From an uncultured Gammaproteobacteria bacterium (GTDB lineage: Bacteria > Cyanobacteriota > Vampirovibrionia > LMEP-6097): a stretch of 64,000 nucleotides of DNA. The notes under the pieces are model-generated. The model was not told the origin of the DNA and ran no database searches. It was given only the letters and a program-made list of their open reading frames with translations. The stretch spans positions 9,546-73,545 of the forward strand of contig CAYTKM010000002.1 of assembly GCA_964438425.1 (NCBI GenBank). Direction: 5' to 3'. Positions 1-54,102 of this stretch are shown here, piece by piece. The position numbers and the translations under genes are program-made. Position 1 is the stretch's first letter. Each line of letters opens with the position of its first letter.

Positions 1-1223
1 TGTTTGTTGATTTAGTAGATGATTCTGCCAAACTTCAGCTCTTTAGTGATGCTAAAACGCGCGCTCCCGAGCTGCAAAAGATTCTTGATAACCTAGATAA
101 AGGTGATATCATCGGCGTTACAGGTCCACTTAGACGCACGCCTAGAGGTGAACTCACGATGAACATCGAAGAAGTTACGGTGCTTGCTAAAACCTTATTA
201 CCTTTACCTGAAATAGTTGAAGGTAAACGTCGTCGTCTGGGTATCGCTGATGTAGAAACGCGCTACCGCCAAAGATACTTAGATTTAATTGTAAACCCTG
301 ACTCTAAAGAGAAGTTACGTAAAAGAGCACTTATAGTGCGTGAGATGCGTAACTATTTAGATAATCTGGGTTATTTAGAGATCGAAACACCGATTTTAAA
401 TTCTGAAGCTGGTGGCGCGGCGGCTAGACCATTTGTTACCCACCATAATACTTTAGATATGGATATGTATCTAAGAATCGCTACTGAATTACATTTAAAG
501 CGTTTAAGTGTAGGTGGTTTCGAGAAAATTTATGAAATCGGTCGTATTTTCAGGAATGAAGGTATTTCGATTAAACATAATCCTGAATTTACTTCAATCG
601 AACTTTATGAAGCTTATACTGACCTTGAAGGTATGATGAACTTAACAGAAGATATGTTAAGAGTTATCGCTAAAAAAGTCTTAGGTGCTTATAAATTTGA
701 ATATCAGGGTACAGATTTAGACTTTGAGCCTAAATTTGAGCGTATCTCAATGTTTGATGCTGTTAAAAAAGCTACTGGCAAGGAGCTTTATGGTAAAGAA
801 TTAAATACAGCTTTTGAAGCGCATGTTGAAGAAACACTGATTCAGCCTACTTTTATCTATGATTACCCGATTGAAGTGTCTCCACTAGCTAAAAAACATC
901 GTGACCCGGATAAGCGCGCGCAAGGTTTTGTAGAAAGGTTTGAATTATTTATTTATGGACGTGAAACCGCAAACGCTTTTACTGAGCTAACTGACCCGCA
1001 AGATCAAAAAGAAAGATTTTTAGAGCAAGTGCAGGAAAGAGAAGATGGTGATGATGAAGCGCACGTGTATGATGCTGACTTTATTACGGCTCTTGAATAT
1101 GGCTTGCCACCGACAGGCGGTATGGGGTTAGGTATAGATAGGCTAGCTATGTTCTTAACAGATTCAGCTTCGATTCGTGATGTAATTGCCTTTCCTACTA
1201 TGAAGCCACTTGTGGATAATTAA
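1..1223 (+). CDS. lysS: lysyl-tRNA synthetase, class II (5' end lies outside the window)
   Basis: The ORF-track protein 159..1223 is the class II LysRS catalytic core (motif 2/3-like regions, ...GLPPTGGMGLGIDRL...). The same frame is open back to nt 3 (FVDLVDDSAKLQ...GDIIGVTGPLRRTPRGELT), so the gene starts upstream of the window. Confidence 0.9.
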   Translation, partial: FVDLVDDSAKLQLFSDAKTRAPELQKILDNLDKGDIIGVTGPLRRTPRGELTMNIEEVTVLAKTLLPLPEIVEGKRRRLGIADVETRYRQRYLDLIVNPDSKEKLRKRALIVREMRNYLDNLGYLEIETPILNSEAGGAAARPFVTHHNTLDMDMYLRIATELHLKRLSVGGFEKIYEIGRIFRNEGISIKHNPEFTSIELYEAYTDLEGMMNLTEDMLRVIAKKVLGAYKFEYQGTDLDFEPKFERISMFDAVKKATGKELYGKELNTAFEAHVEETLIQPTFIYDYPIEVSPLAKKHRDPDKRAQGFVERFELFIYGRETANAFTELTDPQDQKERFLEQVQEREDGDDEAHVYDADFITALEYGLPPTGGMGLGIDRLAMFLTDSASIRDVIAFPTMKPLVDN

Positions 1224-1510
1224 TTAGCTTTAGATTAGAGCTGGTATTTAACCTAAATTAATTTAAGAGTATAGTAGTTATTTAAGTCTAAGCTTAATTA
1301 ATCATAGCTTTTAAAGCTTTTTTGCTGAAATATAGCTTTAAGATATTAGTTAATATAATACTTTACAAAAATCTAAAGATAAAGCTGAAAATCTGCATTC
1401 ATCTTGTTATAATTTGTCTTGGTAGTTAAATTAGCTCACTCTAACTAGGTTTCGAGGTTTGAATTTCATACCCTTAGATCTAAAAAGTGATTAACTTAAA
1501 GACCACTTTA

Positions 1511-1526
1511 GCGTTAAATTTAACGC
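1511..1526. promoter_or_regulatory. perfect 16-bp palindrome GCGTTAAATTTAACGC about 35 bp upstream of the ahpC start; candidate operator of a peroxide-responsive regulator
   Basis: Read directly from the sequence. It overlaps a possible -35 (TTTAAC) that sits 17 nt upstream of TATAGA, and a strong SD (AAAGGAG) follows before the ATG at 1563. Confidence 0.3.
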
Positions 1527-1562
1527 GACTCAATTGTAAAATATAGAATAAAGGAGATTTAC

Positions 1563-2162
1563 ATGGGAGTATTAGTTGGTAAAGAAGCACCAGATTTTCA
1601 AGCTGATGCAGTAGTAAACGGCACTGAGTTTAAAACTATTAAATTAAGTGACTATAAAGGTAAAAAATATGTTGTTTTATTTTTCTATCCATTAGATTTC
1701 ACATTCGTGTGCCCTACTGAATTGCACGCATTCCAAGAGAAAATTGCTGAATTCGATAAGCTTGATGTAGAAGTTATCGGTGTAAGTGTAGATTCTAAGT
1801 TTTCACATCACGCTTGGTTAAACACACCTAAGTCACATGGTGGTATCCAGGGTGTTAAGTATGCTGTAGTTTCAGATCTTAATAAAGAAATTTCTGAGAA
1901 GTATGACGTATTAGTAGAAGGTGCTGGCATCGCTTACCGTGGTTTATTCTTAATCGATAAAGATGGTATGGTACAACACCAAGTAGTTAACAACTTACCA
2001 CTTGGCCGTAATGTTGATGAAGCTGTACGCATGGTTAAAGCACTTCAGTTCTTCGAGAAAAATGGTGAAGTTTGCCCAGCAAACTGGAACGAAGGTTCTA
2101 AAGGTATGAAAACTACTGATGAAGGTTTGAAAGAATACTTCAACGAACCTGCTAACGCTTAG
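1563..2162 (+). CDS. ahpC: peroxiredoxin, typical 2-Cys AhpC/Tsa family
   Basis: Peroxidatic Cys motif FTFVCPTE and resolving Cys motif GEVCPANW. Strong SD AAAGGAGA 8 nt upstream. Confidence 0.9.
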
Positions 2163-2303
2163 TTGACTTGTTATTAAGCTTTAGACTTGTGTTTTTTAGG
2201 TCAGTTTTTAATAAATAAATTGATGTTTATTAATTCATAAGTGCTTGAAAATTAAAAGTCTATATACCGCTTAAATAAAGCTTTAAGCTTAAGTATAAAT
2301 TAG

Positions 2304-2340
2304 AAACACGCTGGTAATTTATTTTACTGGCGTGTTTTTA
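2304..2340 (+). terminator. rho-independent terminator downstream of ahpC
   Basis: acacgctggtaa / ttactggcgtgt stem (12 bp with two G:U pairs), loop tttatt, followed by TTTT. Confidence 0.55.
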
Positions 2341-2665
2341 TATTTAACCTGTGTTTATTTTCAGCTCAAATAATCACAGTTGCGAATGCTTCTCAATTAA
2401 GAGTCTGCAACTTAGAAGTTTTATAATTATAAATGTAATCTTGAATATTTACTAAAGTTTTGGATCGCTGTATTAGTCTTATTTTAAGGAATTTTACTAA
2501 TAAAATGATCATCACTTTAAATGATACTCAGGCTTATATTTACATTTGATGTGAACTATGCTTTAGTCTTATTTAAAAGCTAAAAATTTGTAATTTATAC
2601 GATTATAAATACTAAAGATTTAAAGTTAGCTTACATATCAAGCCAAAAATAAGGAGAAAATTATC

Positions 2666-3325
2666 ATGGCACATAAAAAACCTGAATTACCTTGGTCTCA
2701 AGACGCGCTTGAGCCAAACTACAAAAAAGAAACATTGGATTTCCACTATGGTAAGCATCATCAAGCTTACGTAGATAAGTTAAATAAAGCTTTAGAAGGC
2801 ACTGGTAAAGAAGATATGCCTTTAGAGCAGTTATTAACTGATCTTATGAAAAAAGATTTCCCAGAAGAGAAAAGACAAGCTGCTATCAATCATGGTGGTG
2901 GTCATTATAACCACTCTCTATTCTGGAGCATTTTGACTCCAAATGGTACTGAAAAGCCAGAAGGCGCTTTAGCTGAACAAATTACTGCTGATTTCGGTAG
3001 CTTTGAGAGCTTTAAAGAAGAATATGGTAATAAAGCGGCTACTTTATTTGGTAGTGGTTGGACTTGGTTAGTGGTTGAGCCATCATCTGGTAAATTAAGT
3101 ATCGAAAACACTGCTAATCAGGATAACTGCCTTATGAACTCTAGTAAAAAACCATTGATGGTACTAGATTTATGGGAACACGCTTATTACCTAGAGCACC
3201 AAAACCGTCGTCCAGATTTTATTAATGCTTTCTGGAAAATGGTAGACTGGAAAAAAGTAAATGAGAACTTCGAAGCTGCTAAAGCTGGCAACGATATCTT
3301 AGAACTTGAGCCTGTAGCTGCCTAG
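2666..3325 (+). CDS. sodA: superoxide dismutase, Fe/Mn family (Mn-type signature)
   Basis: Metal ligand regions HHxxH...NHGGGHYNHSLFW...DLWEHAYY. The GGHxNHSLFW block is characteristic of Mn-SOD rather than Fe-SOD. SD AAGGAGAAA upstream. Confidence 0.85.
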   Translation: MAHKKPELPWSQDALEPNYKKETLDFHYGKHHQAYVDKLNKALEGTGKEDMPLEQLLTDLMKKDFPEEKRQAAINHGGGHYNHSLFWSILTPNGTEKPEGALAEQITADFGSFESFKEEYGNKAATLFGSGWTWLVVEPSSGKLSIENTANQDNCLMNSSKKPLMVLDLWEHAYYLEHQNRRPDFINAFWKMVDWKKVNENFEAAKAGNDILELEPVAA

Positions 3326-3347
3326 TTTTATAGCTTAAAGACTAAAT

Positions 3348-3386
3348 TAAAAAGCCTTTCAGTTATTACTGAAGGGCTTTTTTATT
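3348..3386 (+). terminator. rho-independent terminator downstream of sod
   Basis: aaaaagcctttcag / ctgaagggct stem followed by TTTTTT. Confidence 0.6.
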
Positions 3387-3505
3387 GATGTATTTTATAT
3401 TTCATTAGATTAATGACCTTAACTATGAATCACTTAAGGAAATCTGATATCTACATAAGTCTAAAAAATAAACAATAAAGTCTATCAAAGAACTAAAATA
3501 GTCTT

Positions 3506-4570
3506 ATGAAGCTTTTGCATCAAGTCTTTTGTGAAACCTTTAAATTAGTGGATAGTACGGTGGATGAAGATTTTTTCCCACTTTTACAAGATCATGCTAT
3601 TTCGAAAAATTTAGCTGATTATAAAGCTAAGTTGAGAAAGAAGATTTGTGATTTATCTCAGCATAAAGTAACTTTAACTGAAAATAAAATACTTGAAGAC
3701 AAAAATAAAGTTTTGTATCTTAATTTAATGCATAAGCTCACTATAAATTCATTTTTAGACTCTGATAATATTCTTAAAAAGAGTTTGAGATTTGCTTATA
3801 ATGCCGAAGGTCTGGTTGCACCTGTAAATAAACTTGAAAATTACCTTAGGCAATCATATATTAAACAAGCTCTAGAGACTTATCATTTAAAGGTAGATAA
3901 GATTATAGCTAATTCTTTGACTGTTGAAGGTACTAAGCTGACTTCAACCCAACTAAATAAATTTAAGAGCGCTTTAGCATCTGAGCTAGACTATACTAAT
4001 CATCACCAGCAAATATCTAAAGCGATGTTTAATTTGTTAAATGGTATTCTGGCTGATAACCAAGAAATTGTACTAAAGTATCCACGTGATCTATCAAATA
4101 CTATTCCTGGTGGGCATTACCATACTATAAAACTAAGTGCTCTCAAAAATGGTGATTTAGCGATTGCTTATTTAGATAGTGAACTAAATTTAAGATCAGT
4201 TGATGAGCAACTTAAAATAGATATGACTTTAAAAGTATCTAAAAAAACAGGTTCAGTTACTGTGCTGAAAAACAATTCTCTTTTTAAATTATCAGATAAT
4301 GCAAGTGCCAAAAACTATAATGACCCTCTGTATCTTTTTAAGCATATATTCTTAATGCATGCGGGGCTTGAGAAGGAGAATGATCTAATAAATATTTTAG
4401 CTGGTTGCGCGCGCCTGCCTAATTTTATTAAACCTAACCGCGAGCTAGAATCTACCAGTATCCTAAAAACCAGTGAAAGTGGTTTAAAGACTTTATATCG
4501 AACCTTCTATGATGGTTTAGATCCTAATAGCTATCAAGTAGTTCAGGATTTTATTAGAGAAGTAAAGTAA
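3506..4570 (+). CDS. hypothetical protein (paralog A of a tandem pair)
   Basis: Long ORF with no recognisable domain. Its C-terminal two-thirds is clearly homologous to the next gene (MFNLLNGIL.../MFNLLKNII..., HIFLMHAG/HIFLDDKN, P(N/K)FI(K/S)P..ELES(T/S)). Confidence 0.55.
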   Translation: MKLLHQVFCETFKLVDSTVDEDFFPLLQDHAISKNLADYKAKLRKKICDLSQHKVTLTENKILEDKNKVLYLNLMHKLTINSFLDSDNILKKSLRFAYNAEGLVAPVNKLENYLRQSYIKQALETYHLKVDKIIANSLTVEGTKLTSTQLNKFKSALASELDYTNHHQQISKAMFNLLNGILADNQEIVLKYPRDLSNTIPGGHYHTIKLSALKNGDLAIAYLDSELNLRSVDEQLKIDMTLKVSKKTGSVTVLKNNSLFKLSDNASAKNYNDPLYLFKHIFLMHAGLEKENDLINILAGCARLPNFIKPNRELESTSILKTSESGLKTLYRTFYDGLDPNSYQVVQDFIREVK

Positions 4571-4795
4571 GGGTAAGACTAAGTTTGCTATAAATTTTAT
4601 AATTAAATTTTGAGCTTTGCATTGCGGCTTAAGTACCATGATGCTCTGCTATTATAGGTTGAAACTTAATGCTATTTAATAAAATATAGTTTAAGGTAAT
4701 AAGATATTAGGAGGGTTGGTGGTTTAAGACCTGGTTCACTTATATTCTATAAAACTTAATAATTAAATTGTATCAATGGGTTAAAATAAGACACC

Positions 4796-5905
4796 GTGGA
4801 AACATTTCGTCGTCTATACTTTCATGCACCAGAGTTTATAAAAGCTTTTAATAAATCTGATGCTAAAAATTATATTCAGCCAGATCAAAAAAATGTTGAG
4901 GCATTTATACCTAAGTCAAGCTCATTTTCTAAAACTGCTGACTTAAAAAGTCATGAAGCTAAACTTCGCAGTGAGATAACAGCTATGTCAAATAGCCCGC
5001 TTCCTGACATCAAAGATCTTAAACCTAGTAATCGTAAGCTAGAAAAAAAATTATTAGGCAAGCTTGACCAGATGTCGACAGGAATTGGTATTAACAAGGC
5101 TTTAGAATTAAAAAGAGCTATTAGAAATAACATAGTAAAGTTTGATAACCAAAACTTTTTTAACGCTGAAGAGTTTAATTTATATAATCAAAAAATAAAC
5201 TCGGCTTTAGCTTCTTATACGCGTAAAGTAGATTTAGTTACTAAAGATATGAATGAAGTAAAGTCTCATGATATTAATAATAGTACTATTGATGATTTAG
5301 TGAATAAATTTAAAGCTGAAAAGCAGTTTTTAAATGAGCATCAAAATCTTTCACCTACTATGTTTAATCTATTAAAGAATATTATCTCAGATAGTACAAA
5401 AGTTAGCTTAACTAATATACTTGATAATAATGACATGATACCATTTGGTCATCAACATGATTTAAAGCTAAGTTTAGATAATGAAGGTAATATACTAATA
5501 GATTATCTGAACGATGAAGCTGGCTTAGCTAGAAATGAGGATGATAATACTAAACTAGACTTCACTTTAAAAGTGGCTGAAGATACTAAGCAGATAACTA
5601 TTATTAGAAATGATTCTAAACTCGCTGCAAATTTACCAGAGGTATCCCAAAACAAGTTTACTCACCCTAGGCAACTTTTCGAACATATTTTTTTAGATGA
5701 TAAAAATTCTCGTGGCCTTAACATTCAAAACGATTTTATAGGCACTTTAAAAGGTAGTATAAGAATGCCTAAATTTATTAGTCCTCAACATGAACTTGAA
5801 TCAAGTACTATAGCCAGAGATAATCAAAAACCTAGAAGCACTTTTTTTAATGGTGTAGATTTAAAAACTAAGCAAGCTATTGATAATTATCTATCAAGTA
5901 ACTAG
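4796..5905 (+). CDS. hypothetical protein (paralog B of the tandem pair)
   Basis: Shares a C-terminal ~200-aa region with the 3506..4570 product. No known domain. Confidence 0.55.
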   Translation: METFRRLYFHAPEFIKAFNKSDAKNYIQPDQKNVEAFIPKSSSFSKTADLKSHEAKLRSEITAMSNSPLPDIKDLKPSNRKLEKKLLGKLDQMSTGIGINKALELKRAIRNNIVKFDNQNFFNAEEFNLYNQKINSALASYTRKVDLVTKDMNEVKSHDINNSTIDDLVNKFKAEKQFLNEHQNLSPTMFNLLKNIISDSTKVSLTNILDNNDMIPFGHQHDLKLSLDNEGNILIDYLNDEAGLARNEDDNTKLDFTLKVAEDTKQITIIRNDSKLAANLPEVSQNKFTHPRQLFEHIFLDDKNSRGLNIQNDFIGTLKGSIRMPKFISPQHELESSTIARDNQKPRSTFFNGVDLKTKQAIDNYLSSN

Positions 5906-5925
5906 AAAATCTGAGATATTAACCT

Positions 5926-6030
5926 AGAAAATAATTACAAATTATTCGATTTTCTATAAAATTATTCTAAATTTTATGATTTTTTGGAATAATTTTCTAA
6001 TTTTTAGAATAATTTAGAAAATTATTCTAA
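5926..6030. repeat. cluster of ~20-bp AT-rich motif copies (TAGAAAATAATTACAAATT-like and inverted copies) at ~30-bp spacing
   Basis: Motif copies at about 5926, 5957, 5985 (inverted) and 6005-6030. The same motif family occurs at 16.3 kb, 32.8 kb and 45.9 kb. Confidence 0.6.
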
Positions 6031-6097
6031 GTTAGTAGTTCTGATTATTTTCTGTAATCTTTATGGATTAAACATAAAAGCATTGAAAAATAAGCAT

Positions 6098-6120
6098 AAA
6101 AAAAGAGCTTTCGAGCTCTA
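6098..6120 (-). terminator. hairpin agagct-ttcg-agctct flanked by an A-tract (a T-tract on the minus strand); likely terminator for the minus-strand gene 6245..6583
   Basis: Perfect 6-bp GC-containing stem with a tetraloop. On the minus strand the sequence is followed by TTTTTTT. Confidence 0.4.
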
Positions 6121-6244
6121 AGTTGAATTTGTAAATTTGTTTATAATAAATATTATAGCAACTTTTCTTGGTCTATGCAAGTTAGACAGGTGCTTTAATA
6201 TTAAATATTGTTCATTTTAGTGGTTTTACATACTGAGTTATGTT

Positions 6245-6583
6245 TTACCTTAGTTTATGGCTTAAGTGTTTTAATAGGTTAGTAAGATGTTTATCTACTT
6301 TTTTTTGGGGTTCATTTTTTATAATAGCCGTGGCGAGTAGAGCCTTTTCTGTAACCCGTTGGTTATGCTGCAACCCACTGTTTCCTGTTTCTATAACTCG
6401 TTGATCCTTAGCTGAATATTCAGGAGTATATACTTTTATACTATGGTTAGGTTTAATAATCTCACTATTGGCTGAATTATCATTTGTATTAGAAGTAAGA
6501 AAAGCATCTTCAGTTAAGGGAATAATGGCTTTAAAAATATAGATCAAGTACTTAATATAATTTATTAAGAGCTCAACTTCCAA
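6245..6583 (-). CDS. hypothetical protein (112 aa)
   Basis: ORF divergent from the Fic gene. No recognisable motif. Confidence 0.4.
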   Translation of the reverse strand: MEVELLINYIKYLIYIFKAIIPLTEDAFLTSNTNDNSANSEIIKPNHSIKVYTPEYSAKDQRVIETGNSGLQHNQRVTEKALLATAIIKNEPQKKVDKHLTNLLKHLSHKLR

Positions 6584-6586
6584 ATA

Positions 6587-6647
6587 AATGGGTGCAATTG
6601 GGTGTGTTTATGGGTGAAGGGGTTGATAAATAGGTGAAAATGGGTGT
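6587..6647. promoter_or_regulatory. five direct repeats of (A/T)TGGGTG spaced ~10-13 bp apart in the divergent promoter region between 6245..6583(-) and the Fic gene
   Basis: aaATGGGTGcaATTGGGTGtgtttATGGGTGaagg...ATAGGTGaaaATGGGTGtat. The phasing of about one helical turn suggests an array of regulator binding sites. Confidence 0.35.
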
Positions 6648-6659
6648 ATAAATGATTAT

Positions 6660-7709
6660 GTGATAAACACAGATACATTAAAAATTTCTAGTGAAATTCT
6701 TAACCTTATTACACAAATCGATGAATTCAAAGGTGCTTGGCGAGCATTAGGTACACTTGCTCCTGAGCGTTTAAATGCATTAAAACATGTTGCAACTATT
6801 GAAAGTATAGGTTCTTCAACCCGTATCGAAGGTAGTAAGTTATCTGACCGTGATATAGAAAAATTGTTGTTAAACTTACAGATCAACCATTTTGATACCA
6901 GAGATGAACAGGAAGTGGCTGGTTACGCTGAAGTGATGGAATTGATATTTCAGGCTTGAGAAGATATTCACTTTAATGAAAATCATATTCAACAATTACA
7001 CCGTGATCTACTTAAATATAGTCAAAAAGATACCCGTCATCGTGGTAAGTATAAAACTTCATCAAATAGTGTTGCAGCTTTTGATCAAGCAGGCAAGCAA
7101 ATTGGCATTATTTTTGAAACCTCAACACCATTTGAGACTCCAGCTTTAATGAAGGAAATTATAGACTGGGTCAATCATACTTTAGAAAATAGATTGTTAC
7201 ATCCTTTACTAGCTATTGCAATTTTTACTGTAGTGTTTTTAGAAATCTATCCTTTTCAAGATGGAAATGGTCGTTTGAGTAGAGTCTTAACCACTTTGCT
7301 ACTGTTGCGTGCAGGTTATACTTACGTTCCATATAGTTCACTTGAAAGTGTGATTGAAAAGAATAAGGAAGGTTACTATTTGGCTTTACGTCAAACTCAA
7401 GGGACTATACCATCAAATTCTCCTAATTGGGAGCCTTGGGTTTTATATTTTTTAAGAATTTTACTGAAACAAACACAAAATTTATATAAAAAGGTAGAGC
7501 GCGAAAAAATAATTTTAGCTAATCTGCCAGAGCTATCTTTAAAGATTTTAGACCAAGTAAAGCAGCACGGTCGTGTAACTATGGCAGATATGATCAAGCT
7601 TACAGGGGTTAGCCGTAATACCTTAAAAGAGCACTTCAAATCTCTGCTTGAGAAAAACCATTTGGCTTTGCGTGGTAAAGGGCGTGGAAGTTGGTATGAG
7701 GGTGTATAG
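6660..7709 (+). pseudogene. Fic/Doc family protein (class II Fic with an N-terminal inhibitory motif), interrupted by a single in-frame TGA at 6957..6959
   Basis: ORFs 6660..6959 and 7149..7709 are in the same frame, and the only stop between them is TGA 6957-6959. The N-terminal part carries the S-x-x-x-E-G inhibitory motif (STRIEG). The downstream part carries the Fic motif HPFQDGNGRLSR (YPFQDGNGRLSRVL). Confidence 0.7.
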
Positions 7710-7837
7710 TGACTTTTAACGAGACTGTTTATATGTATGTATACTTTTAACGTTTGAAAATATATAATAAAACTATTATTTAATGCTAAGTTTAGACCTG
7801 ATCTCTTGCTGCTAAAGTATGTAAAATATATTAATTA

Positions 7838-9553
7838 ATGCATCAACTCACAATTAAATTAAACAAATCTTATAAATCATTTATTACTGGATTTGAGACT
7901 ACTTTGTCGGGTGACTTGGTAATTTTGTCAGGTGTAAATGGAAGTGGTAAATCTCAACTAGCAGATATTATTGCACATCAACAGCACCAGAAAAGATCAT
8001 TACGTATCGAGGCAACAGTTAAGTTAAATGGAAAAGATTTTGGTATGGGTGAAGTGATTGTTCGTTCTTTTATAGAGAGTGTAAATTTAAATAATTTTCG
8101 TCAAACAGATGTGTTACAGATTAATCGTACTAAAGATATGATCTGGAACTGGTATGAAAGCAGTAAATTAACTCCAAAGGATAACGATGGTTCAATTAGA
8201 TGGTCAAGGCAGATAAAATATATTAAAAATATATTGATTGAAAAATTTGGACAAGAAAAATTTAATCTTCTGAGTAGGGAGGAATTCGAAAGGTCTCTTC
8301 CTGATAATATAAATATTTCTGATGATGATATTTTTAATGATGAAATATCTAAGAATTTCCATTTATTTGCTTTTGATAAAGTTGAAAAACAAAAAGAATA
8401 TTCATTTAAACCAGAAATTTTCGATTCGTCAATTCTAGGTCAAGCTCCATGGGAAGAATTGAACTCTGTACTTAAAGATCTTGATCTAGCATATAGATTT
8501 AGAGGAAATTTCGATATATGTAATGGTGTATTAAATCATGAAGTAGCAATATATCCAATAAATAATGATGGCTCTTTGAATTATCAAGAGCCAAGAAATA
8601 TATCAGATTTATCCACTGGAGAAAAAGCAATATTATCGCTTATTACTGGAACTTTATTTAATGACCCTAGTAACTTACCTAAAGTTATAGTCTTAGATGA
8701 ATATGATGCAAATTTCAATCCTTCATTAACTCAAGCATTTTATAAAATACTTGATAAGCACTTTATTAAAAGGGGGATAATGATCATCTTTATAACTCAC
8801 TCAATATCATCAATTGCATTAGCTCCAAATTCTGCTGAGTTTTATGAACTATTTAAGCCAGATGTCGCTGAAGAGGGGAAAAGAATTTTTAGAGTTCAAA
8901 AAGAAGAATATAAAGAGATGAATATTCTCGAACTAATTTTTAAGAAATATTCTAATACTAAGAAGCGTTATCGAGAAGTAAACAGTCAAGAAAAGTTAAT
9001 CATGGATACTACCAATTTACCTAAATTATATGTTGAAGGTAAAACAGATAAGCAATATATAGAGAAGGCTGCAGAATTACTGAACTTTAATAGAATAGAG
9101 GATATTGAGATCATTTGTGGTGACGGCTCTGCCAACTTAACTAATATATATAAGGGACTGTTACGTTCTCAGCGCTTAAACTCTAGAATTCTAGTGTTGC
9201 ATGACTGTGATGTTAAAAAAGCAAAAAATGAATCAGAACCAGCTGAAAATCCGATTTTATTTCAAAGAGCAATTGATCAGATGAGTAGTCACTTCATCAA
9301 AAAAGGCATAGAGAACTTGTTTTCCAATGAAACTATAGAAACAGCTAGAGATGGATTACAATTAGAAGGTTTATACAGGGAATCTATACCAGATGCTTCT
9401 AAATTAGAAGTAAGAATTAGAAAATTAGATGATCAGTATAAGGTAAGGTTGGCTGACTGGCTTTGTGAGAATGGTACAACTAAGGACTTTAAAGAGTTCT
9501 CTAAAATTTTTGATTGTATTAAAGAGTGTTTATTTATTAATGAAACTAAGTAG
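7838..9553 (+). CDS. OLD-family ABC-ATPase / Toprim (DUF4435-like) fusion protein; candidate single-protein antiphage nuclease (class 1 OLD / GajA-like / fused PARIS-like)
   Basis: Walker A GVNGSGKS, ABC-signature-like LSTGEKA, Walker B VIVLDEYD, H-loop ITHS. The C-terminal ~200 aa carry LYVEGKTDKQY and LHDCD (Toprim Glu plus DxD). The length (571 aa) matches P2 Old and GajA. Confidence 0.65.
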   Translation: MHQLTIKLNKSYKSFITGFETTLSGDLVILSGVNGSGKSQLADIIAHQQHQKRSLRIEATVKLNGKDFGMGEVIVRSFIESVNLNNFRQTDVLQINRTKDMIWNWYESSKLTPKDNDGSIRWSRQIKYIKNILIEKFGQEKFNLLSREEFERSLPDNINISDDDIFNDEISKNFHLFAFDKVEKQKEYSFKPEIFDSSILGQAPWEELNSVLKDLDLAYRFRGNFDICNGVLNHEVAIYPINNDGSLNYQEPRNISDLSTGEKAILSLITGTLFNDPSNLPKVIVLDEYDANFNPSLTQAFYKILDKHFIKRGIMIIFITHSISSIALAPNSAEFYELFKPDVAEEGKRIFRVQKEEYKEMNILELIFKKYSNTKKRYREVNSQEKLIMDTTNLPKLYVEGKTDKQYIEKAAELLNFNRIEDIEIICGDGSANLTNIYKGLLRSQRLNSRILVLHDCDVKKAKNESEPAENPILFQRAIDQMSSHFIKKGIENLFSNETIETARDGLQLEGLYRESIPDASKLEVRIRKLDDQYKVRLADWLCENGTTKDFKEFSKIFDCIKECLFINETK

Positions 9554-9572: not shown

Positions 9573-9983
9573 CTAGAGGTGATCTAGCTGCACAAAAAGC
9601 AAAGCTTTTGCTTGCTGTTCAGGGTACTTTAGTCTGCGCAGTGGTAGTTTAGCTGGCATCTCCCTTCATACCCTTCCTCCTTTGCTCGGAGGTTAAATAT
9701 TCAAATCAACGTCGAATCTACTAGTTATACAAAAATAAAAAGTGCCCCGATGGACGCTTTTTATTTTAATAATAATGGTGGACCCGAGGTGATCTAGCTG
9801 CACAAAAAGCGATGCTTTTTGCTTGCTGTTCAGGGTATTTTAGCGTGCGCAGTGTTACTTTAGCTGGCATCTCCCTTCATACCCTTCCTCCTCTACTTGG
9901 AGGTTAGATATTCAGGTCAACGTCGAATCTACTAGGTATACAAAAATAAAAAGCGCCCTGATGGACGCTTTTTATTTTTAAAA
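9573..9983. repeat. two tandem ~208-bp direct repeats (unit A about 9573..9775, unit B 9776..9983), each beginning with a copy of the 3' end of tRNA-Ala and ending with a terminator hairpin
   Basis: Unit B starts with tggtggacccgaggtgat, 18/18 identical to tRNA-Ala positions 59-76 including CCA. Unit A retains 8 nt (gaggtgat). The units are about 88% identical. Each ends with aaaaagcgcc(c)tgatggacgcttttt. Confidence 0.8.
9941..9976 (-). terminator. rho-independent terminator immediately 3' of tRNA-Ala (a second copy sits at about 9731..9767 inside repeat unit A)
   Basis: aaaaagcg-cc-ctgat-gg-a-cgcttttt hairpin flanked by A- and T-tracts. It can act as a bidirectional terminator. Confidence 0.55.
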
Positions 9984-10059
9984 TGGTGGACCCGAGGTGA
10001 TTCGAACACCCGACCTCCTCGGTGCAAACGAGGCGCTCTACCAACTAAGCTACGGGCCC
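9984..10059 (-). tRNA. tRNA-Ala (anticodon UGC)
   Basis: 76-nt cloverleaf on the minus strand: GGGCCCG acceptor stem with the G3:U70 Ala identity pair, D-arm GCTT/AGTTGGTA/GAGC, anticodon stem-loop CCTCG-TTTGCAC-CGAGG, T-arm GGGTG-TTCGAAT-CACCT, and an encoded CCA. Confidence 0.95.
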
Positions 10060-10757
10060 ATATATGTGGACTTTTTTAATTATAGATTATTCGGATTGAG
10101 CATGCAGGCAATCACCTAAGTTTTAATTATCTTTATATATTTTGTAAAAATACGATGAAAATCTGATAACTAAACTTTAGAAGAAATTTTGTCGACATCT
10201 TCATGCCAGCTATCACTATATGAAAAATCTAATATATTTCAAAGTCCTTTTAAAATCGCTCCATAAAGCTATTAACATTTTGTTCATAAAACTTGCCCCC
10301 TTATTAATATGAATATCTGCCTGAAGTTTGTTTAGCTTCAACGCCATTGTTGAAACAACTAAAGATAGATAAAAAAGTTTCTTAAAACCTATTCTACAAC
10401 ATATTTATAATCGCTTTTTAACCTTTATTTAACATAAGCGGCACTTACTTAAGTGCTTCACGAATCTGTTTGTAAGGTTCTTAGTGAGCAGAATTCAAAT
10501 ATTTGAAATTTAGTAAGCCTTTCACTGACTGCTATCTGACCATAGGTAAGCTAATGGTAGGTGTTTGCCTACTTAAGCTGACTTGCACTCTAATGTATAA
10601 CAATAATAGTATGTATAGCTTAATTAAATTAATTATTATTAATGAAAACTAAATCCCAGAGCGCAAAAGGTAAGAAAGCTTAAATTTTATTAGTCAAGTT
10701 TAAGTAGACGTTGAAGTATATGTAAATAAAAGCTCTACTTGATAAAATTAAATTTGC

Positions 10758-11492
10758 CTATCTGTGAGTGACGATACTTACATCTTTTCTAAATGCTGAA
10801 ATAGATTTGTTTAAACCATCAATAGGTTGAATATAATCTTTTCTAAGTGGGTAACCTTCCCATTTATCTGGATTCAAAATTCTAACTAAATTAGGGTGAC
10901 CATCAAAGATTAGACCCATCATGTCATATGCTTCGCGCTCTTGCCAGTTAGCTGAAGCGTAAATATTAGTTAAAGTTGGTAAGTGAGGCGCTGTCTTAGG
11001 CACAGTCACTTTTAGAATAATGGCTTCCAAGTGCTCTGAACTCTCTAAACGTAAAATATACTGGTAACCTTTTTTAAGTTCAACAGCAGTTGCGAAGTTT
11101 AAGATATCGAATTTGCGGCTTTCCTTAAGCTTAACGCAGGTGCTAACCATATCTTCGACTGCGATTTCGTACATGTAAGTGCCAGTTTTATCTGTGCCAA
11201 GCTCTTCGCGTTTGATTTCTGTACCTTCTTCTTCAAAAAATAAGACAGCTTCAGGTGTTTTAGGTGGCGGTGGTGGTTCTACTTCCACTTCTTCTTCAAT
11301 TTCAGCACTTTCATCTGCGTCTGTACTTGCAGCAGCTTCTTCCGCGGCTTTAGCCGCTGGGTCATAACCCAGAAAATCTATCAAAGCTTTTTTTTCAGCT
11401 TCAGCAGGGTCTTTACCCTCAGCTTTAGCCTTTTTACGTGCATAAAATGCAACTAAAAGTTCATCACCAGGTTTTACAGGAATATCAGCCAT
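10758..11492 (-). CDS. nuoC: NADH-quinone oxidoreductase subunit C (30-kDa subunit) with a ~95-aa acidic/Pro-rich N-terminal extension
   Basis: C-terminal core ...NWQEREAYDMMGLIFDGHPNLVRILNPDKWEGYPLRKDY matches the NuoC/Nqo5 family. The N-terminus is low-complexity (AEEAAAST...EPPPPPK). Confidence 0.85.
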   Translation of the reverse strand: MADIPVKPGDELLVAFYARKKAKAEGKDPAEAEKKALIDFLGYDPAAKAAEEAAASTDADESAEIEEEVEVEPPPPPKTPEAVLFFEEEGTEIKREELGTDKTGTYMYEIAVEDMVSTCVKLKESRKFDILNFATAVELKKGYQYILRLESSEHLEAIILKVTVPKTAPHLPTLTNIYASANWQEREAYDMMGLIFDGHPNLVRILNPDKWEGYPLRKDYIQPIDGLNKSISAFRKDVSIVTHR

Positions 11493-47411: not shown

Positions 47412-50228
47412 TTAATCAAGTTTTAATAGCACTGGACTAATTTCAGCTTCAACATCAGCAGGCTCTATGTCAAGCTCTTCTAGATCTCTACTAGATGAAG
47501 AACTAGTTGCATTAATGAAGATAGAGAAGTTTCTTAAGTCTTTTAATAAGCTTTTTAGCATTTTCTTATCCTGTTTATTAATCTTGTCATCTTCGTTGTA
47601 GTCAAACAAGTCATAAAATGAATTAGTATCTACAGTAGCTAAGTTACGGTCACGGTCAAACAAGAACTCTTTGCGGGCTTTTTTAAACTGTTTTTTATAA
47701 GCCTTATTAAGTTTTTTCTTAGGTAACTTGCCATCGAGATTTACATCAAGTAATTCAGCAGCATACAGGAATCTATGAACCTGAATATCACAGCTTGCAT
47801 AGTCTAAACTACGATCTAAAGCATCAACATTACTATCATTGTTTAAATCGAATTTAGGATGGTTAGTTGCAAGTGTGCTAGCAGGAGTAGTATTTTGGCT
47901 ATCGTTAATCAATAGATTTAATTCGCTAGCTAATTTTAATTTCTCTAAGTTCTCTAGATTACTATTTTTATTAACATCAAAACCATTATCCTCAAGTGCA
48001 TTAGTCGCTTCCACGCACGCTAATGGCGTAGGTGCTTGCGGCTGGACTACTGGAGTCTGGCTTAGATCTATAGTCGGGTTAGGTGAGCCAGTGCCAGCAG
48101 TTACTACATCGATCACAAAGCTTTTATCAACAGTAATTCCTGAACCGCTATCATTACATTCGATAGTAATTGTATACTGTGGTTTAGTATTTTTATCAGT
48201 ACTAACTGTAGTTTTAAGTTCCATGTTTGAAAAGCTAATATCGCTGCTGGTATTTACAAGCGAGCAGGCTATTGAATCATTTTCTGGATCCGTCACAACT
48301 ACTCTAGAGATTAAAGTACCAGCAGGTTGGCTATCTTGCACTTCCTGAAACTCTAAATTAATAGAATCTACTGGAAAGTTACCATTAGGAAGCTTAGATC
48401 TTAAGACAGGAGTCATTAAACCTTCTGAAATATACCAGATGTTAGTAAAATCCCAATTCTGGTAAGAAGCTTGCTGTCTTTTAGCTGTGCTGTTCAATAA
48501 AACTGCTACTGTAGCTGCATTACTATTAGTATTAAAGTTATTAAATAGATCTGGTGTGATACCAGCTGCTGTTACATCGGTAAAGTACGCATCAGTAAAA
48601 CTGATATCTTCGATATCGTCATTATTCAAGAATTCACCGACTAGTGGATACTCTTCTAAGTCTATAGTATCGACTACACTACCATCAGCATATGAGTTAA
48701 TGATATCAGTGTCACCACCGTCAATCTCACCGATTAAACCAGCTGCGGCGCCACCATCAGCAAAAACATTCACCTTAGCATATGAATTTTTGATTACGAT
48801 AGTGTCAGTGCCACTTGAGCTATCACCGATAAGACCGCCAGCTTCAGCGCCAGCAGTCAAAACATTACCTTCAGCAAAAGACTCTTCTATTAAAGTGTCA
48901 TCGTTAACATCACCGACTAAACCACCTATGTTCTCACCATTTACATTAGCGTCTATATATGCACAAGACTTTTTAATAGTTAAAGTATTATCGTCAATTT
49001 CGCCGACTAAGCCACCAGTATCACTACCTAAATTATTTAAGGTAATCAAAACATCCGAATTTAAAATCGTTAGATCAGTTTGAGCGTCACCTACTAATCC
49101 CCCTACATCGTTACCGAAAGACTCTATAAAGCCTGTAAATTCAGAGTTAGTGATAGTAGTAATGCCATTGGTGATACCAACTAGACCACCAACGTTGTTT
49201 ACTTCGGTTTTGCTACCCTGATAGAAGAGATCAGCCTGAATATTAATATTGTCAAGTTCAATATTACCGAGAGTTTCACCTGCTAGACCACCAAAATTAC
49301 GTGGCGTGCCAGAAAAATTAGGATTATCCACGATTACTAAAGATGAACCAGTGACGTAAATATCACTAATTTTACTATCAGCAGGAATCGCAGAAAGTAC
49401 TAGTGCAGCGTTAAAATTCCCACTATTAACAGTTATATTATCTAAAAAAGCATTTTTTAGGTAGATAGGTTTAATAACACTAAAGTAACCACCGATAAGA
49501 CCTGCTGCTGCTGCATCAGTACTCGAGTGCATAACGGTTATATTATTTGCTGTAATATTTTCATAAATACCAGCTTTAGTACCACCAACAAGAGCTCCTA
49601 AACGATTGTCACCTTCTATAATAATATTATTTAAAGTAATATTCTCAACTTTAGTATCATTTATAGGGTTATTAATATCGAAATCATCTTCATTAGTCGC
49701 TATTAAAGCTGCTACTTTTTCAGTTCCGATAAAGGTACTTTGAGAGATTGTGACATCATCAAAGCTTGAATTTTCAGCTTTACTAAAGATAGCTACTCTT
49801 TCGGTACTACTACTCAGTACTATATTATTGAAGTTAATATTTTTTACTAGAGAGTTGTTTATTTCTCTAAATAAACCCAGTCTGGTACTGCCGCCAGTAG
49901 TATCTATGGCTTCTAGGTTAGATACAGTAAAGTTGTTACCATCTATAACTACACAAGATAAAGCCTGATCATTTAAGTCAGCTGCTACAAAGGTAGTATT
50001 AGCGCTATCGCAATCTATATTGCCTGCTAGTTTGTAGTAGGTATCATCAGCAGTAATATTTCTAAGATCATTACAATCAGAGATAGTTTCTTCGATTAAA
50101 CCTGTAGTACAAGTACTAGGTAGACCAACTGAGCTAGGACTAGTGGTAGCGAAAGACAGTGCGTTTGCGGCTTGCAAGCCAGCCAAACACATAACCATGG
50201 TGAAAAAAGTTGTATAAAATCTTTTCAT
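47412..50228 (-). CDS. giant secreted surface protein (about 938 aa mature): N-terminal signal peptide, repetitive right-handed beta-helix-like central region (GGLVG/GGLIG repeats), C-terminal ~150-aa dockerin/EF-hand-like plus basic module
   Basis: Signal peptide MKRFYTTFFTMVMCLAGLQAANA; the ORF-track start at 50270 adds 14 aa upstream. Dozens of G-G-L-(V/I)-G-containing ~22-aa repeats. C-terminal Ca-binding-loop-like DLNNDSNVDALD and FDYNEDDKINKQD flank a Lys/Arg-rich helix. Confidence 0.7.
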   Translation of the reverse strand: MKRFYTTFFTMVMCLAGLQAANALSFATTSPSSVGLPSTCTTGLIEETISDCNDLRNITADDTYYKLAGNIDCDSANTTFVAADLNDQALSCVVIDGNNFTVSNLEAIDTTGGSTRLGLFREINNSLVKNINFNNIVLSSSTERVAIFSKAENSSFDDVTISQSTFIGTEKVAALIATNEDDFDINNPINDTKVENITLNNIIIEGDNRLGALVGGTKAGIYENITANNITVMHSSTDAAAAGLIGGYFSVIKPIYLKNAFLDNITVNSGNFNAALVLSAIPADSKISDIYVTGSSLVIVDNPNFSGTPRNFGGLAGETLGNIELDNINIQADLFYQGSKTEVNNVGGLVGITNGITTITNSEFTGFIESFGNDVGGLVGDAQTDLTILNSDVLITLNNLGSDTGGLVGEIDDNTLTIKKSCAYIDANVNGENIGGLVGDVNDDTLIEESFAEGNVLTAGAEAGGLIGDSSSGTDTIVIKNSYAKVNVFADGGAAAGLIGEIDGGDTDIINSYADGSVVDTIDLEEYPLVGEFLNNDDIEDISFTDAYFTDVTAAGITPDLFNNFNTNSNAATVAVLLNSTAKRQQASYQNWDFTNIWYISEGLMTPVLRSKLPNGNFPVDSINLEFQEVQDSQPAGTLISRVVVTDPENDSIACSLVNTSSDISFSNMELKTTVSTDKNTKPQYTITIECNDSGSGITVDKSFVIDVVTAGTGSPNPTIDLSQTPVVQPQAPTPLACVEATNALEDNGFDVNKNSNLENLEKLKLASELNLLINDSQNTTPASTLATNHPKFDLNNDSNVDALDRSLDYASCDIQVHRFLYAAELLDVNLDGKLPKKKLNKAYKKQFKKARKEFLFDRDRNLATVDTNSFYDLFDYNEDDKINKQDKKMLKSLLKDLRNFSIFINATSSSSSRDLEELDIEPADVEAEISPVLLKLD

Positions 50229-50559
50229 GTTGTTTTTCCTCTTGGAACAAATCCTAACATATACAAACAAATAAAACTTAAGTTTTAGTGAAATTATCTT
50301 GATGATTTTTGTTGGGTTAAGCTATTTTAATTCTAAAGGCTTATAAACTTTAAAGCTTGGTATAGAAATGCTTTTGTACTTAAACATTACTCGTCTTATC
50401 TTTAAAAGTTGCTGTATGTGCGTAGATTTAAAGCTAAGTTCTTTTCTGTATTTAAATAGTTAGGCGTTTAAATTGTAAGTATTATATTTATTATACATAA
50501 AGTGCTTTTATTATATATAATTCTTTTTGGCACTACTGGTATGTAATTATGTTGATTTG

Positions 50560-51122: not shown

Positions 51123-54102
51123 TTAGTTACTATTTTCAAGAGAGTCATCGAATGGTAACGCTTCTTCGTCAACTGATGTTTCAGTAACGATATCCGCTGG
51201 TAACTCATCATTATTTAAATCTTCTTGAACACTGTCATCTGATTGAGATGAGCTTGCAGCAGCAAAGATGCTGATGTTTCTTAGTTGTCTTAGAAGTTGT
51301 CTAAAGTATCTTTTATCTTTTTTGTTGATCTTATCATCTTCGTTATAATCAAATAGATCATAGAAAGAGTTAGTATCTACAGTTGCTAGATTACGGTTAC
51401 GATCAAACAAGAATTCTTTACGAGCTTTTTTAAACTGTTTCTTGTAAACATTGTTTAATTTTTTCTTAGGTAATTTACCGTCACGGTTAGTATCTAAGAT
51501 TTCAGCAGCGTGCAAGAATCTATGTACTTGTATATCACAATCAGCGTAGTCTAGGATTCTATCAAAGTTATCAATTAGATTATCATCGTTTAGATCAAAC
51601 TCTGGATAGTTAGTTGCTAGTGTCGCTGCTTGCGCGCTAGTTTCTTTACTATCTTGGATTAATAAGTTTAGTTTGCTTGCTAATCTTAATTTTTCTAAGT
51701 CTTCAAGTAAACCATTATTGTTGATATCAAAGCCATTGTTTACAAGTTCACTTGTCGCAGCTGGGCAAGCTAAAGGCTGTGGGTCACCGATTTGAGGATC
51801 AACAGTATTATCAGCTAAAGTCAAAGCTGGTCCTAAACCTTGACCAGTAATATTAGCCACTGCATTTAGAGGGAACACTCTAGTAATAGCTCTTTGTGAA
51901 CCGAAATCAGTACATTCAATCGTTAGATTTAAAACATCGCCTACATTGGCTGTTAAGTTACTAGCTAAAGAGATTGAAATATTGTCGTTAGAGTCTACGT
52001 CTAAAGTAAATAATGGGCTATTTTGTAAAACACATGTTACAGGATCTGTTTCAGGGTCTACTACTGTTACATTAGCAACTTTTAAACCAGCTATACCATT
52101 GTTTACTACAGCATTTTGATCTAAAGTGATACTTGATACTGGGTAGTTAGTGATTTTGAACCTTAATTCTGGAGTTGATAGACCATCTACGTTATACCAG
52201 ATGCTGTTGAAGTCAAAACCTACATAATTAGCTCTAAAGTTTTTGTCAGTGCTGTTAAGTTTTTGAGCAACAGTGCCTGAGCTATTATTAGTTGAAGAAG
52301 TGTTGAAGTTAGTCGCAAGTGTAGGTGCGAAGTTAGCTGAAGAACTAAAGTAAGCATCATTAAAAGTTACATTAATACCGTCATCATTGTTATTTACTTC
52401 ACCTACTAAAGGGTACTCGTCGTCGTCATTTGCAGTAACTAAATTACCATCAAAATATGAAGTGTTAATAGTGACATTGCTAGAACTTGAACTGTCCATC
52501 TCACCGATAAAACCACCAGCGTTATCATCTGTAGTAGAAAGGTTAACCTTAGAGTATGAATCAGTGATAATTACGTTATTAGCATCTACAACGAAACCAA
52601 CAAAAGAACCAACATCTTCAGCTGCACCGTTTATAGTACCTTTAACAAATGATTGATTAATATCGATACTATTACCTATACGTCCAGCAAAACCACCAAC
52701 TTCATCATCAGTAGCGTCAATATCAACTACGGCACATGTTTTATCAATATCTACAGCGCCACTATAGTTAGCACCAATTAAACCACCATTTAAACTATTA
52801 TCGTGATTTACATTACTATCGATAGTTACAATAGCATCAGAATTAGAGATAGTTAGATTACCATTACTAGCACCTACGATACCACCAACTTCATCATCAA
52901 AACCAGTAATAGTACCTTCAAACTTTACATTTTCAAAAGTATTATCAGTTGAATTAGCGTAACCTACGATACCACCAACTTTATCAATATTAGCTGAACC
53001 GATTTGATTAAAAGGAGCCAAATCTTTTACGTGTTTGATATCAGCTTTAACTAAGATATCCTTTAATCTAACACCATCCTGATAGTACTCACCAATTAAA
53101 CCACCGATGCTACTACTATTGTTGTTTGAACCACCTAAGTAGAGTAAATTTGAGTTAGTAATATTAACATTATTAACTACAGTATCTTTTCTAACAAAGC
53201 TTGAAAGTAGACCAGAAGCTGAACTTCTAGCTTTTACTTCGATGTTGCTTCCAGTAATGTCTGACCAGTTATTTGCTGTAGTAGAACCTAAACCGAAGAT
53301 ACCACCAGCATGGCTATATGTACCACCATGATCAACTACAACATTGGTTGCACTGATTTCGTTGGCTACAGTATCTTTCGCGCTACCTACTAAACCACCT
53401 ACGCGGGTACCAGCTTTAACAGAAGAGTTTGTTAAGTTAACGTTTGAGATAGTTTTAGGGAAATTAGGGTAGTTAGCTACTAGATCTAAAACGTTAGTGT
53501 CATCAGCATTAATACTGTAATCGTTTAAGTTTTGAGAGTAAGAACCTTCCATATTACCTACCAGCGCGCCAGCTCTTTCTCTAGTAGCTTCAACGATAAT
53601 ATTATTTAAGCTTAAGTTCTCAAAAGAACTGTTTTGTGAACCACCAACGATACCTACGCCATATTTACCTTTAATGTTGAAGTTCTCGAAGTCTAAGTTT
53701 TTAAGAATAGAATTTCTAAGTTGTTCGATTAAACCCATGTAATTTCTACTAGTGTTGTTTACAGTAAAGTTAGAAATTTTATAGTTAGTTGTAGAATTTT
53801 TCTGACCATCGATAACGATACAGTTTAAGTTGTTATTAGCTAAAGAGCCTGAGCTAGTAATACCATTACAATCAATGTCATTGGTTAAGGTATAAGCTGT
53901 GCCACCGTGTAAATCCAGCAAGTCTGTACAGTCTGATAAAGTATCAGTTGCTAAAGGCAATGTGCAGTTTGATTGTGGACTTTGTACAGTAGATGGGGCC
54001 ACTGTTGTTATAGTTACGGCACTAGGTGCAAAGGCACTGGCATCTGGCACTGTGCTTACCCCTATTGCTGTAACTAGAAATAATCTAGTAATTTTTTCAG
54101 TT
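51123..54102 (-). CDS. giant secreted surface protein, paralog of 47412..50228 (beta-helix repeats plus the same C-terminal module). The N-terminal signal peptide lies in the +1 frame relative to the ATG at 54100-54102, across a poly(A)6 tract
   Basis: Large ORF 51123..54050 (GTG). Upstream, ATG 54102-54100 gives MKNKLKK then stops. Adding one A to the A6 tract (plus-strand T6 54082-54087) yields MKNKLKKITRLFLVTAIGVSTVPDASA..., a canonical signal peptide. The C-terminal 150 aa are about 80% identical to the paralog. Confidence 0.7.

Follow-up and report, generated by a model that had tools for sequence, protein, structure and literature searches.

A probable local tandem duplication of the tRNA-Ala(UGC) tail, terminator and spacer in an uncultured Caenarcaniphilales-like bacterium

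The locus described here lies in a 64,000-nucleotide stretch of contig CAYTKM010000002.1 (assembly GCA_964438425.1), which we call the window, and consists of a tRNA-Ala(UGC) gene followed directly by a short tandem repeat. The minus strand carries, in order, nuoB and nuoC, then after a gap of 700 nt the tRNA gene and two repeat units. Converging on them from the plus strand are genes for a superoxide dismutase (SOD), two paralogues, a Fic/SoFic-like protein and an ATPase-Toprim protein. The tRNA gene (9984–10059, minus strand) is intact, encodes its CCA and has the G3:U70 pair; it was called by ARAGORN and scores 68.1 bits against the Rfam tRNA model. The two units stand head to tail, are 208 and 210 bp long, and fall just downstream of the tRNA gene at window positions 9576–10001. 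Tandem Repeats Finder (TRF) reports an array with these limits, a period of 211, 2.0 copies, 90% matches and a score of 704, and blastn aligns one unit to the other at 90.4% identity over 208 nt. The metagenome-assembled contig to which the window belongs is Ga0450804_1104956 (316 kb). The locus is base-for-base identical over 20.7 kb in contigs from two other samples, making three assemblies in all, so an assembly artefact is ruled out.

Each unit carries a piece of the tRNA. The proximal unit (9794–10001, minus strand, 208 nt), delimited by TRF, alignment and blastn, consists on the tRNA strand of the 18-nt tRNA 3′ end (10001–9984), a terminator and a spacer of ~140 nt with two small hairpins. 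The distal unit (9584–9793, minus strand, 210 nt), recognised by the same three methods as 90% identical to the proximal one, opens with an orphan repeat of the tRNA 3′ end, identical at 18/18 positions (9793–9776), and continues with a copy of terminator and spacer. The 18-mer in question, ATCACCTCGGGTCCACCA, corresponds to tRNA nucleotides 59–76; it occurs exactly twice in the window (9984–10001 and 9776–9793, both on the minus strand), where shuffles of the window lead one to expect 0 copies. The second copy is a fragment without a 5′ partner, and the unit body has no similarity to tRNA nucleotides 1–58. Word counts and alignment reveal the start of a third unit (9576–9583), which is confined to 8 nt, ATCACCTC, and at which homology ends. 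This third 8-mer sits inside a small palindrome, CTAGA-TCACC-TCTAG (9573–9587), 22 nt past the stop codon (9551–9553) of the convergent ATPase-Toprim gene. All three copies of the 8-mer in the 64 kb are unit starts (9994–10001, 9786–9793 and 9576–9583). The overall layout is X-(ATCACCTC-Y)-(ATCACCTC-Y)-ATCACCTC-Z, in which Y opens with GGGTCCACCA, the remainder of the tRNA 3′ end. Homology has sharp edges on both sides: proximally, identity begins at tRNA nucleotide 59 (the boundary falls between nucleotides 58 and 59), and distally, once past the 8 nt, agreement with the core falls to chance level (4 of the following 10 positions). The 190 bp that follow core 1 and the 190 bp that follow core 2 are 90% identical.

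The most prominent structure in the units is a predicted bidirectional intrinsic terminator, which in the proximal unit (9941–9980) comes directly after the tRNA CCA. It is an 18-bp hairpin set between an A-tract and a T-tract, with RNAfold energies of −21.8 kcal/mol on the tRNA strand and −17.1 kcal/mol on the plus strand. The distal copy (9732–9767) folds at −15.4 kcal/mol on the minus strand and −13.2 kcal/mol on the plus strand (RNAfold), and is the first terminator that the convergent ATPase-Toprim gene reaches. Its stem has one substitution, which produces a C×A mismatch on the tRNA strand and a U·G pair on the plus strand. That the change spares plus-strand pairing is a weak hint of plus-strand use, although the minus-strand hairpin is still the stabler of the two. 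The only terminator of tRNA-Ala lies inside the repeat unit, and no terminator-like sequence was found beyond the third 8-mer. By alignment and folding, the two smaller hairpins are a CCTCC-7 nt-GGAGG structure (9676–9692 in the distal unit, 9887–9903 in the proximal), whose copies differ at three of seven loop bases, and an AAAAGC-3 nt-GCTTTT structure (9594–9609 in the distal unit; the proximal copy, 9803–9821, is 1 bp longer), whose copies differ at two of three. A six-codon open reading frame (ORF), ATG AAG GGA GAT GCC AGC TAA, is evident in the sequence and the ORF list at 9649–9669 (minus strand, distal unit) and, in identical form, at 9860–9880; in both units it begins 6 nt behind an AGGAGG (AGGAGG-N6-ATG). 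No sigma-70-like promoter was found inside the units on either strand. A preliminary description of this DNA, whose units B and A are our proximal and distal units, had noted tandem units of ~208 bp at the tRNA-Ala gene with an 18/18 core copy and an 8-nt remnant, hairpins with diverged loops, and AGGAGG with a six-codon ORF. All of these are real and present in both units where claimed to be so; its estimate of ~88% identity between units was slightly low, the measured value being 90%.

No close relative of the source organism was found in the collections searched. Among 5.8 billion proteins the nearest NuoC is 62% identical, and its homologs point to Candidatus Caenarcaniphilales (Melainabacteria). 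Relatives with NuoC ~60% identical are too distant for nucleotide comparison; they keep the rpmH-rnpA...nuoB-nuoC synteny, and after nuoC they have other genes, with neither a tRNA nor a repeat locus there. In six of them nuoB-nuoC is followed by flagellin, an AAA_22 ATPase and an ankyrin protein in differing gene sets, so that what comes after nuoC varies throughout the lineage. The 18-mer core was found at 27 loci of a metagenome collection, four of which have a 100% identical tRNA-Ala(UGC). In each of these four the core occurs once, and neither a unit nor an integrase lies nearby. They share a GC content of 37%–39% and an order of TPR protein, tRNA, a protein of ~190 aa (absent in one locus, L031) and a Laminin_G_3/Big_5 surface protein. 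As this conserved context differs from that of the window, the tRNA-Ala sequence is frozen and its neighborhood is not.

Searches for relatives of the units themselves returned nothing. Neither further units nor further cores exist in ~82 kb of the source genome (the window plus extra flanks of 8.4 kb on the left and 9.5 kb on the right), which leaves the unit count at two. A scan of 185,579 species genomes with a single exact word, a unit 20-mer from a conserved block, found no homolog: its four matches extend over 20–26 nt only, lie in unrelated phyla and are attributable to chance. A second unit 20-mer had 0 matches in the metagenome collection, which does not contain the source contig. Exact-word scans of 2.9 million viral contigs with three unit words and the 18-mer core likewise gave 0 matches, and phage and plasmid records had no blastn match to the units. 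An nhmmer profile built from the two unit bodies and run over all 347 kb of fetched loci recovered only the seeded chance 20-mers. Rfam models, applied at the gathering score to the whole window and at E ≤ 10 to 9400–10200, detected the tRNA alone; the terminator hairpin underlies every sub-threshold match (TD-2, Leu_leader, STnc370 and others).

The two copies have since diverged by ~9%–10%, mostly through transitions. There are 17 differences in the 192 aligned columns of the unit bodies, and the whole alignment of 211 columns contains 14 transitions versus 8 transversions. On this spectrum, and on the identical block and the longer ORFs described below, the substitutions look neutral. Their distribution is uneven in one respect: hairpin loops changed at six of 14 nt versus 11 of 178 for all other positions (p = 3.8e-4, Fisher test, for hairpins picked post hoc). 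Stems changed at 2/56 positions and sequence outside the hairpins at 9/122, a difference in conservation that is not significant (p = 0.5). What is seen is an excess of change in loops and not a protection of stems, and it could reflect hyper-mutability of loops; constraint on everything except the loops is less likely. The longest identical block, 34 nt, holds the Shine-Dalgarno (SD) sequence and the mini-ORF, and its length is within chance expectation (P = 0.20). Longer ORFs of 28 and 34 aa (MPAK...) in the units differ mostly non-synonymously and by a frameshift. Folding z-scores of the units range from −2.8 to −4.2, much of which is accounted for by the terminator.

Our interpretation, which we regard as probable, is that the repeat is a lineage-specific local head-to-tail duplication of the tRNA-Ala tail, terminator and spacer, and not the footprint of a mobile element. 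The ancestral locus would have consisted of tRNA-Ala, its own intrinsic terminator and the spacer of ~140 nt, with a chance occurrence ~210 nt downstream of the 8-mer ATCACCTC, which equals tRNA nucleotides 59–66 (the end of the T-loop and the 3′ strand of the T-stem). A single unequal exchange, or replication slippage, between the two 8-bp identities would then have duplicated everything between them, yielding tRNA...(ATCACCTC-GGGTCCACCA-terminator-spacer)(ATCACCTC-GGGTCCACCA-terminator-spacer)ATCACCTC-flank. The agent may have been plain illegitimate recombination, slippage, or an integrase that used a pseudo-site. The tRNA gene remains intact, as its complete 3′ end is restored at the junction. 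Duplication predicts homologous segments after core 1 and core 2, which an attL/attR pair does not. That the unit represents the region originally downstream of the tRNA also fits, since the only terminator of the tRNA is within the unit and none follows the third 8-mer. The structure closely resembles the known products of microhomology-mediated (RecA-independent) tandem duplication: the same 8 bp open copy 1, recur where the two copies join and follow copy 2, the junction is clean and without insert, and the two microhomologies are as far apart as a unit is long. Structurally nothing sets it apart from them; the only unusual points are the position of one microhomology within a tRNA gene and the retention of both copies up to 10% divergence. 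The sole function that we would assign, inferred from sequence, is to end transcription where two genes converge. For tRNA-Ala this would be done by the proximal hairpin, and for the ATPase-Toprim gene on the other strand by the distal one; as the distal terminator is the first that this gene meets, the distal unit would form its 3′ untranslated region (UTR). The SD-like AGGAGG, the six-codon ORF and the small hairpins would have been carried along, and have no demonstrated role.

Several observations weigh against a simple duplication. The ancestral 8-mer ~210 nt downstream is assumed: no pre-duplication allele was found in databases that hold no close relative. A fresh 210-bp direct repeat is unstable, and that this one has lasted to 10% divergence although the genome is small is a hint of selection, or alternatively of two copies having been joined when already diverged. 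The loop excess, post hoc as it is, is not predicted by pure neutrality unless loops are mutation hot spots. The breakpoint, moreover, falls in the T-loop (nucleotide 59), a favored crossover site of tRNA-targeting integrases, so that site-specific recombination could have been involved, and it lies one nucleotide from the boundary (nucleotide 58) of the tandem repeats at the Escherichia coli tyrT locus.

One rival explanation is integration. Here related integrative elements would have serially hit the T-loop/3′ end of tRNA-Ala, each adding a tRNA 3′ end and an arm, and would then have lost their cargo, of which the adjacent ATPase-Toprim and Fic genes would be leftovers; in a variant, the unit is itself a minimal non-autonomous att-bounded element moved in trans. 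A perfect 18-nt tRNA 3′ fragment, displaced in direct orientation and running from the T-loop onward, is what such a history would leave. Displaced fragments of this kind are given as the principle for mapping islands in the Islander paper (PMC4383910), and recombination of mycobacteriophage Ms6 in tRNA-Ala T-loops is described in another report (PMC1762012). Our locus is like the attL/attR of islands and prophages in having a displaced, directly oriented fragment from T-loop to CCA past a regenerated tRNA. The neighboring defense-type genes look horizontally acquired (Fic with an in-frame stop; ATPase-Toprim with homologs at most 37% identical, in unrelated phyla), the region after nuoC varies in all relatives, and copies that arrived pre-diverged would not need a long residence to account for 10% divergence. 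The locus is nevertheless unlike an att pair in most of what defines one. No integrase, transposase or recombinase domain was found in window ORFs of at least 170 aa or among the called genes of the extra flanks (~82 kb in total), and merely 190 bp separate the cores, with no kilobase-scale cargo. The inter-fragment segments, moreover, are mutually homologous: no relation is expected between the arm of an element and the flanking chromosome, yet here the two are 90% identical, and two independent deletions, each ending precisely at the next core, would be needed to produce them. The last fragment is 8 nt long, followed by sequence at chance level. A decayed att site would match its surroundings, instead of being 60% diverged beside sequence that is 10% diverged; since the drop to 4/10 adjoins 90%-identical sequence, we take the third core to be a breakpoint and not a decayed att site. 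Nor was a core copy found past the supposed cargo, at the far side of the ATPase-Toprim/Fic cluster. The core and unit words are absent from the viral contigs, the phage and plasmid searches were empty, and the four other metagenomic lineages with an identical tRNA-Ala have one core and no integrase nearby. We therefore consider integration unlikely. The att footprint proposed in the preliminary description holds insofar as a displaced direct 3′ tRNA fragment is present; serial integration and excision, or decay of an island, is disfavored by the lack of an integrase and by the homologous arms. A look for more cores and a tyrosine integrase, over ~82 kb only, turned up just the two known cores and no integrase. 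The generic dispersed repeat that had been named as an alternative finds no further copies in that span, in the other collections, or in phage and plasmid records.

Selection on RNA is the other direction in which the evidence might be read. The repeats could be an RNA linked to the tRNA in the manner of E. coli RtT: read-through of tRNA transcription, or else an unrecognised promoter, would supply the transcript, processing would release a regulatory RNA, and selection would keep both copies. The product would be a minus-strand RNA of ~150–190 nt whose 3′ end is the tRNA-Ala 3′ end, finishing in ...GGGUCCACCA. The architecture is that of the verified tyrT case, in which units of 178 bp are present 3.1 times, each with the 3′ 19-mer of tRNA-Tyr, and one encodes the rtT/RttR RNA. 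In E. coli K-12 (NC_000913.3, 1286000–1288500) the locus is annotated with tyrT, tyrV, rttR and tpr, TRF gives a period of 178, 3.1 copies and 95% matches, and there are six occurrences of the 19-mer AATCCTTCCCCCACCACCA. The stretch from tyrT to tyrV also includes a full RtT unit with its 19-mer. A structure of 178 bp × 3.14 was reportedly described by Egan and Landy in 1978. That one repeat unit encodes rttR RNA is stated in PMC3318445, which cites Bosl and Kersten (1991), and the role of the RNA is still unclear (bioRxiv 10.1101/2024.07.17.603846). Both loci have tandem head-to-tail units directly past a tRNA gene, each unit with the 3′-terminal ~19 nt including CCA; in both the repeat boundary is in the 3′ part of the T-loop (nucleotide 58 in E. 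coli, 59 here), and both contain short ORFs. The retention of both copies at 90%, with loops changed far more than the remainder, and the negative folding z-scores, largely terminator-driven as they are, also speak for a functional RNA. The likeness does not extend to sequence or structure, however. RF00391 has no match here even at E ≤ 10, whereas as a positive control it finds four copies in E. coli at 133–137 bits. The helix that closes the unit body on the tRNA end in E. coli rtT (−20.3 versus −10.5 kcal/mol in shuffled sequence, reached by 0 of 300 shuffles) is absent here, with −12.3 against a shuffled mean of −12.5 kcal/mol and 48% of shuffles as good. The E. coli repeats are co-transcribed with the tRNA, in keeping with the annotation, whereas here a strong intrinsic terminator (−21.8 kcal/mol in the proximal unit) stands right after each core, between tRNA and unit body, which argues against co-transcription. 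There is no promoter of the sigma-70 type in the units, the stems are not significantly better conserved than unpaired sequence, and with no homolog in any collection there is no covariation evidence. The copies, too, are two at 90%, ending after 8 nt, as opposed to 3.1 at 95%, ending after a full core, and the host phylum is different (Melainabacteria/Caenarcaniphilales versus Enterobacteria). The tRNA-Ala units share the tyrT architecture but are not members of the RtT family, and from this analysis a regulatory RNA of their own appears rather improbable. A role in cis, either as a leader peptide or attenuator with the SD sequestered in CCTCC/GGAGG, or as structured 3′ UTR sequence in the plus-strand ATPase-Toprim mRNA, we regard as very unlikely indeed. 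An ideal SD-N6-ATG with a 21-nt ORF is identical in both copies, and the distal unit lies between the ATPase-Toprim stop codon and the first plus-strand terminator, making it a 3′ UTR if that terminator works. Yet the tRNA strand has no downstream gene, as what comes after each mini-ORF is only the next terminator and then sequence antisense to the ATPase gene; the identical 34-nt SD/ORF block is no longer than chance allows; the proximal unit, between two terminators, is part of no mRNA; and with ATPase-Toprim homologs so distant, no conserved UTR can be shown. The preliminary suggestions thus fare poorly on this side. A leader or attenuator has no gene to regulate on the tRNA strand. A 3′ UTR of the nuclease gene, also among those suggestions, may still hold for the distal unit. 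A duplicated structured or small RNA finds no support, given the lack of an Rfam match, the non-synonymous divergence of the short ORFs and the restriction of excess change to loops. The case for selection on RNA structure is weak, as stems are no better conserved and only loops are unusually changed.

We also considered and rejected some other candidates. Decayed tandem tRNA genes are incompatible with a unit body unlike tRNA nucleotides 1–58. An insertion resembling a miniature inverted-repeat transposable element, with an 8-bp target duplication, would need an "element" that happens to open with the tRNA's own GGGTCCACCA. A protein-coding repeat was discarded on account of the mostly non-synonymous differences and the frameshift between the 28- and 34-aa ORFs. 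Inversion of hairpin loops as the source of their differences was discarded too, the loops not being mutual reverse complements.

The convergent neighbor (7838–9553, plus strand) encodes an ABC-type ATPase with an OLD-like Toprim domain (Pfam AAA_21, with a weak match to OLD-like_TOPRIM). Its best PADLOC matches, all weak, are mad3, AbiLi and the ATPase-Toprim protein of type I-B retrons. Its homologs, none above 37% identity, are scattered over candidate phyla radiation (CPR) bacteria, Proteobacteria and Flavobacterium, a distribution suggestive of horizontal acquisition. Neither a reverse transcriptase nor another partner gene was found near it, and a retron or other defense-associated noncoding RNA beside it was rejected on that ground. 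The Fic/SoFic-like gene (6660–7709, plus strand) is a single reading frame with one in-frame TGA (6957–6959). Its Fic motif is YPFQDGNGRLSR, in which the catalytic His is replaced by Tyr. As TGA is an ordinary stop in the source genome (5/45 genes), it looks like a decaying defense gene. Between SOD and this pseudogene lie the tandem paralogues (3506–4570 and 4796–5905, plus strand), of 354 and 369 aa and 31% identical, which have no Pfam or PADLOC match; each is alone, or accompanied by one near-identical variant, in its 90% sequence cluster. On the other side of the array, the gap between nuoC and tRNA-Ala (10060–10757, ~700 nt) has no ORF longer than 50 aa and no Rfam match, and contains a promoter-like site, TTGAAA-16-TATAGT (10242–10215, minus strand), that could drive tRNA-Ala. 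NuoC (10758–11492, minus strand) has an Ala/Glu/Pro-rich N-terminal extension of ~90 aa that is common only to its nine closest (Caenarcaniphilales-like) homologs. Farther away, two large paralogous ORFs (47412–50270 and 51123–54050, minus strand; 952 and 975 aa) have no Pfam domain; they have in common a 300-nt repeat at 76% identity and contain internal periodic repeats of ~90 nt (52503–52986).

If the array is just a duplication, then a displaced tRNA 3′ fragment, a widely used signature of islands, can arise without any element, here as at E. coli tyrT, and island-mapping pipelines should accordingly demand an integrase or cargo as well. The locus adds a second, phylogenetically remote instance of the tyrT-type layout, in non-photosynthetic cyanobacteria, with a boundary one nucleotide from that of E. 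coli, and the near-coincidence of T-loop breakpoints between two unrelated phyla may be worth surveying. A bolder reading, to which we give little credence, is that tRNA-linked repeats capped by the tRNA's own 3′ end are a recurrent, independently evolved device, arising by exchange at the T-loop and kept as a functional RNA or DNA element, which here may be an RNA processed so as to finish with the ACCA tail of tRNA-Ala, or a minimal att-bounded unit moved in trans by an integrase encoded elsewhere. Were it true, selection acting on the unit as a whole would account for the loop excess within ~190 nt that are otherwise constrained. And if the units were expressed and processed, tRNA-tail-capped repeat RNAs would not be an enterobacterial oddity.

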